This document shows, in pieces, positions 22,323 to 27,359 of a stretch of 64,000 nt of DNA. How positions within the stretch are numbered: position 1 is the first letter of the stretch; every line of letters begins with the position of its first letter. A program made the translations under genes and the position numbers. Source of the stretch: Rhodothermales bacterium (GTDB lineage: Bacteria > Bacteroidota > Rhodothermia > Rhodothermales > JABDKH01); contig JABDKO010000076.1 in assembly GCA_013002165.1 (NCBI GenBank), positions 8 to 64,007 of the forward strand. Reading direction: 5' to 3'. Under the pieces are notes generated by a model. That model ran no database searches. It worked only from the letters and a program-made list of their open reading frames with translations, and was not told where the DNA came from.

Positions 22323-23305
22323 TGAATGATGCTCGTCTCTGGAATGGAGTTACTCACACGGTCTCTCGTACGCTTTTCAGTTTCCGGAAGTCGCTGTGAT
22401 CGTCGCAGTATAAGGAGAGCGCAGCAAACCATCGTACTCATGAGCAACGCTCCTGTCAGCATGTGGCTGCTATTGATCACTACCTGAAGATTGCTGGGTT
22501 GGAGTAGACCGGCTTCATCGAGTAGCACAAAAAATGCCGTGAACCCGAGAACGATTTGCACTGCCAGAAGTCCGCCTGCAAAGTTTATGATCTTCTTAAG
22601 AGCAACATGCTCGCCATAATTCAGATGAACCTGCACTATCGTGGCTACAATCAGTATCGCTACGACAAAGGCCCAGATGATATGAGTTGTGGCAAGGAAC
22701 GTATCAATACCGGTACCCGGATGTCGAAGCAGCGCTCCAAAAACGATCTGGATGAAGACGGCAGTTGTCGAGAATGCCACGAGTCCCCTTAGTTTTACAG
22801 AATCCGCTCCGCCCGGCGCACGTGATCCAACAAACCACGTTTTCGATGTGAAGAGTGCTAACGAGACGATAGTGGCGAAGAAAATCTGTGCCACGCACGC
22901 ATGAACAACGGCAAGGTCGAGGGAAACCAGGGTGACTCTCAGACCACCCAGAACTCCCTGGAATATGACAAGGAAGAGCGCTCCCGCCCCGAGCCAGCGC
23001 ATCCATTTCCTGCTGTCAGCAAAAAACGTCCAGACGGCGATACCGATTGTGAGCATCCCGACCAGTGTGCCGAGTAGTCGATGACCATGTTCAGCAAGAA
23101 CCGGTGTCATCGTCCACCATTCGGGCCAGGGATTAAGCATGTCCCACGAGTCAAAGGACTTGGGCCAGTCAGGAACGGCGAGGCCGGCATTGATACTGGT
23201 GACGAACGCACCCCAACCCATCAAAAGTAATGTGCACACTGCCGTGAATGCGTAGAAAAGCATTCTCCGCCGGTATGCTGCAGGGTATTGTAAACCTCTT
23301 TTCAA
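22319..23305 (-). CDS. ctaA: Heme A synthase (COX15/CtaA family)
   Basis: AGLAVPDWP, EHGHRL, QGVLGGL, conserved His residues in TM helices; overlaps ctaB by 4 nt. Confidence 0.9.
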   Translation of the reverse strand: MKRGLQYPAAYRRRMLFYAFTAVCTLLLMGWGAFVTSINAGLAVPDWPKSFDSWDMLNPWPEWWTMTPVLAEHGHRLLGTLVGMLTIGIAVWTFFADSRKWMRWLGAGALFLVIFQGVLGGLRVTLVSLDLAVVHACVAQIFFATIVSLALFTSKTWFVGSRAPGGADSVKLRGLVAFSTTAVFIQIVFGALLRHPGTGIDTFLATTHIIWAFVVAILIVATIVQVHLNYGEHVALKKIINFAGGLLAVQIVLGFTAFFVLLDEAGLLQPSNLQVVINSSHMLTGALLMSTMVCCALLILRRSQRLPETEKRTRDRVSNSIPETSIIQ

Positions 23306-23531
23306 AAAAAGCTGTTCGACGCAGGGTCTGAGGAATTGTGCAAAATCGGCTGTGGCCGGTTGAAGAAACAGGAGGTCTGTGTCGCTGTTCCATTAAATAC
23401 GCTTGAAGACGCCCGGTCAGGTCTGCAGATTAATCCAATTTTCGGTTCGTCGACTGCAATTTGTGTAAATTGACGTCCCAGTCGCAAGTGGCGACAGACA
23501 AACCTGGACCTGACCCGAACAAAGCAGATCC

Positions 23532-24068
23532 GTGAATTATTTTCGCAGTGAGTTGATACAGCGACTGACGGGCATAATCGTGTCCGGCACGCTGCTATTG
23601 TCCGTGGTGGTGCCCCTGTCGGGCATCGAAATCACAGCGAAGGACCGGGCTGCTCTACAGTTGTTTGGGCAGTCGCTTGATATACCGGTTGACGGCGTAT
23701 TTCTCAGTTCCTGGCAGACCGCTCTTAACAGCGACGCACCCACACTCAAAGGTTTCGTTGAGGCATTCGTAGGATCCTATGAACGTTCGAATGGGATCGA
23801 AGCAGGATCGCTTCCGCAAGACACACATGTCCTTTGGGCTATCCTGGAAGGAATCAGTCTCAATATTGATCCGTGGGGGATAGCTGCTACTCTGTCATCA
23901 GGGTTGAAATCGACGGTACTTTCTTCGACTACACAGTTGCCAGCGTCGGCGATACGATCGAGCGGAGACAAATCTGCTTTGCGAGAGGTCTGGACGTCAA
24001 CAGCACTTTGGAAGGGTGCGGTACATCTTCGCTCGGTACTTACGCCTGTCAATCCTCAGGGCCCGTAG
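23532..24068 (+). CDS. Hypothetical exported/membrane-anchored protein; candidate secD leader (arrest) peptide ending PQGP-stop
   Basis: GTG start, N-terminal hydrophobic stretch LTGIIVSGTLLLSVVVPL, fills the gap between ctaA and secD on the secD strand, and ends VLTPVNPQGP-TAG. Confidence 0.65.
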   Translation: MNYFRSELIQRLTGIIVSGTLLLSVVVPLSGIEITAKDRAALQLFGQSLDIPVDGVFLSSWQTALNSDAPTLKGFVEAFVGSYERSNGIEAGSLPQDTHVLWAILEGISLNIDPWGIAATLSSGLKSTVLSSTTQLPASAIRSSGDKSALREVWTSTALWKGAVHLRSVLTPVNPQGP

Positions 24069-24162
24069 GACCGGATCCACGCAGCTCTTTAATCTTTTCA
24101 CGCGCACGAGCCGCAACGTCCGGCCGGTGCGATCGTCGTTTAGGACTCAATCTTACGTATCA

Positions 24163-26019
24163 ATGCAAGACAACGGATTAAAAATTGGACTGACAGCATT
24201 CTTTCTCGTGCTGTCCGCCTACTATCTCTGGCCGTCGTTCCAGAATATGTACTACAGCCGACAGATGGACGGCATGGACGAGACGGAACTGGCCGAGTAC
24301 ACACAAGAGAATTTTACAAAACTCGCTTCTCTGAAGGAGCGATCGCTCAATCTCGGCCTGGACCTCCAGGGCGGGATGCACGTCACGCTTGAAGTGCAGG
24401 TAGAAGCGCTGATCAGAGAGCTGGCTACGGATATCGACGAGGTTTTCGACGATGTCATGCTCGCGGCAAGAGATCGTGTTCGTACAGGAAATGAATCGTT
24501 TATCGATGCCTTTGTGGACGAGTTCGAAGCACGCGATCCCAATGCACTCTTGTCGCGATACTTCCGCAGCGAAGACGATGGTATTACCCGTCGCTCGAGC
24601 AATTCGGATGTCGCGGCCTATCTACAAGCTGAAGCTAATGATGCCGTTAACCGGGCTATCGAGATCATCAGAGATCGCGTTGACCGTTATGGTGTCACCG
24701 AGCCGTCAATTCAGAAGCAGGGCACACGTCGTGTGATCGTCGAGCTACCGGGTGTCGACGATGCGGAACGCGTGAGAAATCTTCTAAAGGGTACGGCTCG
24801 TCTCGAGTTTAGATTGATGGCCGAGCCTGAAGAAATTGTTCGGTCCCTTCAGAACATCATTGAGTATTACGAAGAAGAGGTTGCGGATTCTACAGCCACT
24901 GCTGATTCAGCTGCTGCAGACTCTACCGGTGATTTCCTTCTGGATGACGGTATCGACGCACCTGCTAACCCGTTTCTGGACGTCGTCAGTCCTGTTGGCC
25001 AGGGAACCGTCTTCGGAATGGTCTCGATAACAGACTCGAGCGCAGCAAATGCATTGCTTCGTGAGCCGGCTGTGGCTCAGCTTTTGCCGCCCAATACCAC
25101 TCTCATGTATACGTCGAGCCCAATAGGTGTCGACGAGACAGGAAGAGAAATTTACTATCTCCTGGGCGTGCGTGACCAGATAGAAATGACCGGCGATGTT
25201 ATTGAAGACTCTTCGGTCCAGTTCGATCAGATGACAAATGCAGCGCAGGTTTCAATGACGATGGACGGTGTCGGCTCGCGTACGTGGGCACGAATCACGG
25301 GTGCGAATGTTGGCAAGCAGATTGCCATCGTTCTGGACGGAGTCGTCTACTCGTATCCGGTCGTGAATGAGAGAATCGTCGGTGGACGTTCCTCGATCGA
25401 AGGGCTCGATTCGCAGGAAGAGGCTAGCGACATTGTAACGATACTGAAGTCCGGTGCACTACCTGCTCCGGTTGACATAATAGAAGAAAGGACGGTAGGG
25501 CCAAGTCTCGGCGCAGCCTCCATCCGGTCAGGGTTTCGATCCGTAGTTGTCGGACTTTTAATCGTTGCAATTTTCATGATTGTCTATTACCGGACCGGCG
25601 GAATCGTTGCCGATCTCGCGCTGATTCTGAATATTCTCTTTATTCTGGGAATACTCGCAGGATTCAAGGCGACCATCACTCTGCCCGGCATCGCAGGAAT
25701 TGTGCTTACAATCGGTATGGCGGTAGACGCCAATGTCCTCATCTTCGAACGAATCAGGGAAGAACAGGCGACCGGAAAAACGTTGAAAGCCTCGATAGAG
25801 GGAGGCTACGCAAAAGCGCTCAGCGCGATATTCGATGCGAACATCACAACGTTCTTTGTTGGAGCAATCCTGTACTCATTTGGAGTGGGTCCGATTCAGG
25901 GATTCGCTGTAACACTGATGGCCGGTATTCTGGCCTCCATGTTCAGCGCCATAATTATTACGCGCATTGTCATCGACTACATGGTCGTTGGAAAGCGCCT
26001 CGGCATCAACTTCGGGTAA
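24163..26019 (+). CDS. secD: Protein translocase subunit SecD
   Basis: LNLGLDLQGG, RVDRYGVTEP, VELPG, ILKSGALP, VGPSLG, GMAVDANVLIFERIREE and DANITT. ATG 24163 preferred. Confidence 0.97.
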   Translation: MQDNGLKIGLTAFFLVLSAYYLWPSFQNMYYSRQMDGMDETELAEYTQENFTKLASLKERSLNLGLDLQGGMHVTLEVQVEALIRELATDIDEVFDDVMLAARDRVRTGNESFIDAFVDEFEARDPNALLSRYFRSEDDGITRRSSNSDVAAYLQAEANDAVNRAIEIIRDRVDRYGVTEPSIQKQGTRRVIVELPGVDDAERVRNLLKGTARLEFRLMAEPEEIVRSLQNIIEYYEEEVADSTATADSAAADSTGDFLLDDGIDAPANPFLDVVSPVGQGTVFGMVSITDSSAANALLREPAVAQLLPPNTTLMYTSSPIGVDETGREIYYLLGVRDQIEMTGDVIEDSSVQFDQMTNAAQVSMTMDGVGSRTWARITGANVGKQIAIVLDGVVYSYPVVNERIVGGRSSIEGLDSQEEASDIVTILKSGALPAPVDIIEERTVGPSLGAASIRSGFRSVVVGLLIVAIFMIVYYRTGGIVADLALILNILFILGILAGFKATITLPGIAGIVLTIGMAVDANVLIFERIREEQATGKTLKASIEGGYAKALSAIFDANITTFFVGAILYSFGVGPIQGFAVTLMAGILASMFSAIIITRIVIDYMVVGKRLGINFG

Positions 26020-26063: not shown

Positions 26064-26972
26064 ATGAGAGTTTTTGAAAGCCTGGATTTCCCATTCGTTG
26101 ACAGAAGACGAGTAGGGTATGTCATATCAGGTGTATTGCTTGTACTAAGTATCATATCTCTTGCCACACGTGGTCTGGAGCTTGGCATCGACTTCAAGGG
26201 TGGTCAGGAGTTTGTCATAGGTGTTGATGGTTCGCCTGAGGTTACGGCCGTCAGAGATGCCGTATCGAATGCACTCGGCCAATCTGTTGAGGTGAAGTCT
26301 TTTGGCTCAGACGCGCTCTTGGTGCGGACGACGTCAGAGGAAGATACACCCGACGCGGACGTTCTTCAGTCGACAATCGTTTCGACTATTCAGTCGTCAT
26401 TTGAAGGCTCCAACCCTCGGGTTGAGAAGCGCGATATCGTCGGTCCACGCTTTGCAGACGACCTAAAGCGTGGAGCCATATATTCCGTCTTTGGATCCCT
26501 TCTGGTCATCTTCCTGTACATTCTCATCCGGTTTGAATGGAAGTTCAGCGTCGGAGCAGTCGCAGCGTTGTTTCATGATGTGACCATTACTCTCGGGCTT
26601 TTTTCTTTCCTCCACGGATGGCTGCCGTTCTCACTACAGATAGATCAGGCGATTATTGCGGCCTTCCTGACTATTGTGGGCTACTCTCTAAACGATACAG
26701 TGGTCATTTTTGACCGAATTCGTGAGTATGCGACGCTGTTTAAGACACAGGATTACAACTCGGTGGTAAATCGGTCGATCAACCGGACCCTTTCCAGGAC
26801 GGTTGTTACTTCCGGTACGACCTTGCTCGTAGTTGCCACTCTCTTTATATTCGGTGGCGAGGTTTTGAGAGGTTTCGCTTTCGCGTTGATTATCGGAGTC
26901 ATCATTGGTACCTACTCTTCGATCTTCGTCGCCTCTCCAATCGTGGTAGAGCTTAAAGCCCGCGCAAACTAG
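26064..26972 (+). CDS. secF: Protein translocase subunit SecF
   Basis: GIDFKGG, VGPRF, FHDV, GYSLNDTVVIFDRIRE and GTYSSIFVASP. Confidence 0.97.
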   Translation: MRVFESLDFPFVDRRRVGYVISGVLLVLSIISLATRGLELGIDFKGGQEFVIGVDGSPEVTAVRDAVSNALGQSVEVKSFGSDALLVRTTSEEDTPDADVLQSTIVSTIQSSFEGSNPRVEKRDIVGPRFADDLKRGAIYSVFGSLLVIFLYILIRFEWKFSVGAVAALFHDVTITLGLFSFLHGWLPFSLQIDQAIIAAFLTIVGYSLNDTVVIFDRIREYATLFKTQDYNSVVNRSINRTLSRTVVTSGTTLLVVATLFIFGGEVLRGFAFALIIGVIIGTYSSIFVASPIVVELKARAN

Positions 26973-26999: not shown

Positions 27000-27359
27000 A
27001 TGAACTATAATTTAGATGAGCGCTACAACGCCGTAGTGATTACACTGAAAGGCAATGTGATGGGTGGTCCTGACGGATCGAAGCTGCATAGCACTCTCCA
27101 CGAGCTCAAAGAAAAAGGACAGGTCAATGTCGTCGTCGACTTGTCCAAGGCCAAGTTCATGAACTCGAGCGGACTGGGCATGCTGATCAGCGCGATGACC
27201 ACAATGAGGAATGCAGGAGGGGATCTTCGCCTTGCCAATGTTGCAGATCGCATCCAGTCGCTTCTGGTTATCACGAAGTTGATTACGGTTTTCAAGCATT
27301 ACAATTCCGTTGATGAGGCAGTGTCCAGCTTCGAGGAAGAGGGAACCGAAGCTAGCTAG
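27000..27359 (+). CDS. STAS-domain anti-sigma-factor antagonist (RsbV/SpoIIAA-like)
   Basis: VVVDLSKAKFMNSSGLGMLI with the phosphorylatable Ser; GGDLRL. Confidence 0.9.
   Translation: MNYNLDERYNAVVITLKGNVMGGPDGSKLHSTLHELKEKGQVNVVVDLSKAKFMNSSGLGMLISAMTTMRNAGGDLRLANVADRIQSLLVITKLITVFKHYNSVDEAVSSFEEEGTEAS

Follow-up and report, generated by a model that had tools for sequence, protein, structure and literature searches.

A conserved Pro-UAG leader with a SecD-related domain precedes secD-secF in Rhodothermales and is a candidate termination-arrest peptide

Pro-ending leaders encoded upstream of secDF have been described as uDF_NAP-stop (Fujiwara et al. 2024, PMC10987492), a class of about 400 sequences from three orders of Bacteroidota. 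The tested member (template Echin_vietn, which we read as Echinicola) consists of 125 aa. Its peptidyl-tRNA accumulates, the stop codon and residues -3 and -1 are required, and the toeprint places the stop codon in the A-site (PMC10987492). The script of that study files Rhodothermales leaders with RAP- or RGP-stop ends under uDF_NAP-stop; the available main text of PMC10987492 carries no mention of Rhodothermales, and its authors favour repeated independent emergence of short arrest motifs.

Here, we analysed a window of 64,000 nucleotides from a Rhodothermales bacterium (contig JABDKO010000076.1). In a first-pass annotation, a 178-aa ORF with the C-terminus VLTPVNPQGP-TAG, ending 94 nt upstream of the secD ATG (24163), had been put forward as a new kind of secretion-monitoring arrest peptide. 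The ORF is real and conserved, and synteny, dN/dS and profile rank agree on this point. The kind, however, is not new, since Pro-stop leaders before secDF that stall in vitro have been published as uDF_NAP-stop (PMC10987492). The features of the locus are as follows.

23466..23473, plus strand: TAnnTT promoter-like element TAAATTGA, upstream of the leader
23532..24068, plus strand: leader ORF, candidate termination-arrest peptide, 178 aa, GTG start
23532..23618, plus strand: basic n-region and hydrophobic signal/TM segment, from hydropathy and alignment (consensus MxxLRS...R-hydrophobic...P)
23652..23867, plus strand: helical domain, homologue of the SecD insert (limits approximate; the window copy is divergent)
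24030..24065, plus strand: C-terminal motif region with the P-Q-G-P end (family R-x-L-x-x-A-x-P-x-G-P)
24066..24068, plus strand: UAG stop (TAG in 60/62 same-order and 53/53 GP-ending leaders)
24069..24162, plus strand: spacer of 94 nt with a candidate Rho loading site (pyrimidine/C-rich over the first 60 nt)
24163..26019, plus strand: secD, 618 aa
24400..24642, plus strand: helical insert of SecD (residues 80-160), flanked by Sec_GG (62-79) and SecD_1st (162-220)
26064..26972, plus strand: secF
27000..27359, plus strand: STAS-domain gene, 27 nt past secF

The STAS gene, which possibly shares the secD-secF operon, was present in 39 of the 41 secD regions examined. A CtaA/Cox15-type gene lies upstream of the leader in divergent orientation.

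The leader has in common with uDF_NAP-stop that it is a small unannotated same-strand ORF directly upstream of secDF, that it comes from the same phylum, and that it combines a signal/TM segment with Pro as last residue and a small residue at -2. It differs by its P-[L/R/M/Q]-G-P end in place of N-A-P, by a near-fixed UAG, by its size (about 180 vs 125 aa) and by an apparently SecD-derived domain, features that go unreported in the available text of PMC10987492. The Q-G-P end of the window leader matches neither the literal N-A-P nor the RAP/RGP rule of the script. Homology to the Rhodothermales leaders was found for those of Balneolales, whose end is NAP or GAP (hhalign 93.7%, E 1.8e-7). The named Cytophagales leaders end in SPNAP, INAP or TNAP in the same register and have no common body with the Rhodothermales leaders (profile E at least 0.23). 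A comparable leader was found at 3/40 more distant loci and at 6/55 distant named loci. Judged by these alignments, the leader family is likely a homologue of uDF_NAP-stop, and it is set apart from the plain members of this class because its end departs from the literal N-A-P.

With TnaC (E. coli tnaCAB) the leader shares the Pro-stop stall site, which is putative here. TnaC is short and cytoplasmic, responds to tryptophan and acts by blocking RF2 at a UGA stop, whereas the leader comprises 178 aa with an export-like signal, a predicted folded domain and UAG. For TnaC and CruR, regulation has been reported to depend on a stalled ribosome that covers the Rho site next to it (PMC12360218). SecM, VemP, ApdA, ApdP and RQH are also exported leaders before a sec gene, and the xGP/xAP core of the present family is similar to RAGP/RAPP. 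In contrast, these peptides stall in elongation and expose a Shine-Dalgarno sequence, while in all members of our family Pro is followed by the stop, and neither a Shine-Dalgarno sequence nor a hairpin switch was seen. C. difficile CliM and LudP/uDF_DGMK-stop are Sec/YidC monitors that are able to arrest at termination and show signal-dependent release, which was demonstrated for LudP (preprint). However, their motifs are unrelated, they belong to Clostridia, and the available parts of the reports describe no homology to the regulated gene. The available CliM account mentions only a yidC duplication (PMC13183943), and the available text on the Streptomyces secDF leader reports no structured domain (PMC12992588). 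Our literature searches yielded no earlier account of SecD homology, UAG bias or Rhodothermales arrest peptides; the secDF list and the supplementary figures of Fujiwara et al. lie outside these searches and may include the family and its motif logo. Within the searched literature, a Pro-stop leader before secDF is known; what would be new is the domain of SecD origin, the tie between GP ends and UAG, and the rut-like composition of the spacer.

When a family profile was built without the genus of the window, the window ORF ranked first among 9,735 stop-to-stop frames of at least 100 aa in its own genome (E 7.7e-8); only three of these frames have a P-x-[G/A]-P end. The leaders are constrained at the protein level, with dN/dS values of 0.15-0.49 in 9 of 11 close pairs; the two remaining pairs, among them that of the window itself, were saturated. 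A 33-member profile recovered 278 clusters at E <=0.001, and 149 of the best 150 end in GP or AP, a count that is not fully independent because this profile contains the motif. The signal-like N-terminus noticed at first reading recurs throughout: by hydropathy only, the Kyte-Doolittle mean over 13 residues is at least 1.7 in 82/82 leaders. In the window leader the top value is 2.65 (residues 15-27), and the net charge of the preceding residues is +1. The distance from signal to motif is 151 residues in this leader and at minimum 72 among the 82 (class criterion >30).

To define the distribution of the leader, we compared secD loci of relatives. Among named SecD proteins, those of Rhodothermales, Rhodothermaceae or unplaced Bacteroidota are closest (59-68% identity), and a second group, at about 50-59%, belongs mostly to Balneolales; from these identities we infer that the groups represent the same order (Rhodothermales) and sister orders. 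secD was located in 28 of 31 relatives, and an ORF ending in [G/A]P-TAG was present upstream of secD in 28/28 loci when long same-strand frames were listed with no motif filter. Further loci were then added, at which frames ending in [GAS]P at most 600 nt from secD were taken as leaders, and a partial second secD-like match (L029) was excluded. The leader was found at 62/73 same-order secD loci and at 20/20 loci from other orders of the class, and the synteny with secD, on which the original proposal depended, is therefore conserved.

Since the leader is absent at 11/73 same-order loci, it is dispensable. No relocated copy was found in the five leader-less genomes searched. At six of the leader-less loci (L035, L038, L043, L044, L045, L047) an AsnRS-like gene, as read from the sequence, directly precedes secD at a distance of 123-141 nt; its own end is Pro-TGA. 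This end is probably a coincidence because the AsnRS family ends in Pro elsewhere too (7/7). In one family (f24) the leader was lost in most sampled members (L075-L078, L080) and L079 keeps a 111-aa version; these losses provide a natural control for secDF regulation. Short leaders of 94-134 aa (L079, L081, L082, L054, L036, L040, L061, L062) have kept the hydrophobic start and the xGP/RAP-stop, and most of the SecD-like domain is gone.

The PxGP-stop end, for which conservation had been anticipated, is conserved. It can be seen from the 62 same-order leaders that Pro occupies -1 in 62/62, Gly (53) or Ala (9) occupies -2 in 62/62 and Pro occupies -4 in 52/62. The value for -1 is partly set by the selection rule, and in the unfiltered listing it amounts to 28/28. 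Position -3 carries Leu in 26, Arg in 15, Met in 9, Gln in 7 and Asn in 2 leaders, and is Gln in the window. All four Pro and all four Gly codons occur, and the base 3' of the stop varies. This free variation indicates that the constraint acts on the peptide and on the identity of the stop rather than on a DNA motif. The stop itself is near-fixed, with TAG in 60/62 leaders and in 10-45% of neighbouring genes (secD 3/31, secF 8/31, STAS 13/29, purA 4/31, kinase 13/30; up to 31 same-order regions). In the own genome, TAG terminates 992/2,335 long ORFs and 37/79 of the Pro-ending ones. AP-ending leaders use TAG in 21, TAA in 5 and TGA in 3 cases. UAG is read by RF1, and together with the near-fixed UAG this suggests a termination stall tuned to RF1. 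GP-stop is among the most avoided bacterial C-termini (odds ratio 0.43), and slow release after Pro or Gly has been reported (PMC7246954).

The body of the ORF had been called unrecognisable, and conservation had been expected for the signal and the C-terminus only. Neither description holds, since a conserved helical domain makes up the first half and the variable part is confined to the last ~60 residues. Leader residues ~41-115 are homologous to the ~80-residue helical insert of SecD. This insert lies within the periplasmic region of SecD, and the leader copy is located between the signal and the putative arrest tail. The window ORF did not fall into any Pfam or NCBIfam family, and the SecDF model gave weak, sub-threshold matches in 11/33 leaders (positions ~90-154 in the three inspected). 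When a profile of 48/62 leaders (those of at least 158 aa) was searched against the 2,335 ORFs of the own genome, SecD came first (E 1.3e-6; runner-up E 0.008). With the reciprocal profile of SecD residues 79-160, the top match was SecD, followed by 19 leaders, and all other ORFs ranked lower. The leader of the window alone reached only E 15 with the SecD-insert profile, and its link to SecD runs through the family. In profile-profile comparison (hhalign), leader and SecD insert aligned with 93.9% over 81 columns and with 94.6% when the profile of 148 database matches was used; the reversed-profile control gave 0.2%. The identity is 25-27% over 80 columns.

When whole genomes without the leader were searched with the leader profile, the top match fell inside secD in 5/5. 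Across 161 genomes of the phylum the profile gave 45 matches, which comprise 13 leaders, one frame with stops and 31 secD/secDF, of which three were assigned from frame length alone. Matches are thus almost confined to leaders and SecD, which suggests an origin by partial duplication of secD, and from these sequence comparisons we consider it quite likely that the leader was born by one old duplication of the secD 5' part. A quick tree (93 columns) separates 34 leaders from 36 SecD inserts by one branch with support 90, and the domain evolves faster in the leader than in SecD. AlphaFold models are in register: the helices predicted for leader L018 (53-64, 70-84, 90-93, 101-120) correspond to those predicted for SecD (93-108, 113-124, 147-175, with a short turn near 129-131) at an offset of ~40, as in the alignment. 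The pLDDT of the leader model is mostly >=90 over residues 11-110, and the last 60 residues are of low confidence. Fold searches with the leader or the SecD N-terminal model gave no match at E <=0.001; the best VIA Z of 6.4, to unrelated proteins, is not meaningful for a helical bundle. hhalign returned no alignment between the signal/TM segment of the leader and SecD TM1. Outside the Rhodothermales/Balneolales class no leader domain was seen. The SecD insert, which matches no Pfam model or solved structure, was seen in SecD of Bacteroidota, Chlorobiota, Ignavibacteriota, Calditrichota, Rhodothermota and Balneolota (including L141-L180 and L181-L260). The short members and the Cytophagales leaders do without most of the SecD-like domain, which indicates that the domain is unnecessary for the core role.

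TAnnTT is the -7 promoter type of Bacteroidota, and the element upstream of the leader is likely the promoter of a leader-secD transcript. TAnnTT occurs at most 90 nt before the leader start at 45/62 loci (shuffles: mean 15.5, maximum 24). Over the final 90 nt of the spacer it was found at 9/62 loci vs 13.6 in shuffles, which is chance level. Enrichment before the leader together with chance level in the spacer fits a single transcript, and nothing in 24069-24162 pointed to an independent secD promoter, which the first-pass annotation had named as an argument against control by the ORF. A sigma-70 promoter or an intrinsic terminator was not found in 23250-24250. In the sister order (L057-L074) TAnnTT often lies 12-18 nt before the start codon of the leader, so that the mRNA would be nearly leaderless there.

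The 60 nt past the leader stop contain 35% C, 26% G, 25% T and 14% A. Compared with the stretches past neighbouring genes, they are pyrimidine-richer in 33/36 regions and YC-richer in 34/36, a modest rut-like signal that comes from composition alone and from relatives that are not independent. Such pyrimidine/C-rich RNA 3' of the stop suggests TnaC-like Rho attenuation. Rho is encoded in the own genome. Two Rho RNA-binding domain matches were located there, one in a 662-aa frame (G000:C231:16036-16251) and one in a 377-aa frame (G000:C90:12776-12988).

We propose that the leader is probably a secretion monitor that stalls at Pro-UAG and lets secD-secF be expressed when export is weak. In this model the Sec/SecDF machinery would pull on the exported N-terminus of the leader. 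With weak export the stall on Pro-UAG would persist, with the Pro codon (24063-24065) in the P-site and UAG (24066-24068) in the A-site, and secD-secF would be expressed. By analogy with uDF_NAP-stop, the arrest is very probably a termination stall in which UAG occupies the A-site and RF1 releases the peptide slowly, and it appears likely that export force releases it. Against this analogy speaks the absence of Asn at -3, which the tested NAP-stop member needs (Gln in the window; Asn in 2/62). As for the coupling to secDF, the composition of the spacer makes TnaC-like shielding of a Rho site just past the stop our leading, though tentative, candidate, ahead of a hairpin of the SecM/VemP type. 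The complete scheme, in which a monitor derived from partly duplicated secD uses a SecD periplasmic domain either as a native test substrate or to generate folding force, stalls specifically on RF1 at Gly-Pro-UAG and acts by Rho-dependent attenuation in place of Shine-Dalgarno exposure, in a lineage whose secD lacks a Shine-Dalgarno sequence, is doubtful as a whole.

The same arrest peptide might control translation of secD without Rho, either by mRNA remodelling in the style of SecM, VemP and MifM or by plain translational coupling. Remodelling is the route of the characterised Sec/YidC monitors as far as the available reports describe it (LudP preprint; PMC10987492), and, also in favour of this reading, the secD start region costs on average 7.4 kcal/mol to open. 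However, when the footprint of the stalled ribosome was forced open in the 54 of 62 loci that were folded (8 were dropped because of N runs, gaps >200 nt or an unsure secD start), the opening cost of secD shifted by a mean of +0.05 kcal/mol. A gain of more than 1 kcal/mol was seen at 7/54 loci vs 8/54 with shuffled spacers. Moreover, a Shine-Dalgarno sequence near the secD ATG is absent in the window, an SD-like word precedes secD at 4/62 loci, the spacers range from ~67 to 380 nt, and the fold of the window (z = -0.34) revealed no hairpin switch. The footprint effect was like that of shuffled spacers and SD-like words were rare. An SD-hiding hairpin switch was not found at the loci folded, and control without Rho is in our view unlikely. 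The 3' end of the 16S rRNA was not found in the assembly.

Other readings dispense with the regulatory stall or with descent from secD. That the product is a small membrane-anchored protein, for instance a SecDF accessory, whose xGP is read post-translationally would agree with the folded domain of the confident model, with the low dN/dS and with the 278 clusters. It is nevertheless improbable: a role at the protein level leaves the fixed UAG unexplained, the short members retain signal and motif and lose the domain, and the homologous class stalls in vitro (PMC10987492). Convergent amphipathic helices in a leader that arose de novo would account for an identity of 25-27% over 80 columns, and small helical bundles match easily, as the VIA Z illustrates. 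We regard such convergence as very improbable, given 31 SecD matches vs one other in 161 whole genomes, the result in 5/5 leader-less genomes, the 19 leaders that outrank other ORFs reciprocally, the negative reversed control and the fact that the homologue is the adjacent gene. A near-fixed UAG would also be kept if amber suppression allowed readthrough into a longer or fused product. However, the gaps to secD spread evenly over the three phases (20/19/23), and the in-frame extensions, from 4 to more than 130 codons, hold no conserved residues. Random phase to secD and lack of conservation past the stop led us to reject readthrough and SecD fusion, which we consider extremely unlikely.

The origin of arrest peptides is an open question, and the present putative monitor family retains, in recognisable form, part of the gene under its proposed control, which would make its origin traceable. 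The fixed UAG makes release-factor-specific stalling testable by a single codon swap. In the absence of a Shine-Dalgarno switch the question arises how force-sensing leaders regulate in lineages with few Shine-Dalgarno sequences. The Rho route, if true, would unite SecM-type force sensing with TnaC-type attenuation, which are known separately. As a minor observation on the spacer, two loci (L067 and L061) carry short tandem repeats with units of 6-7 nt just past the leader stop.
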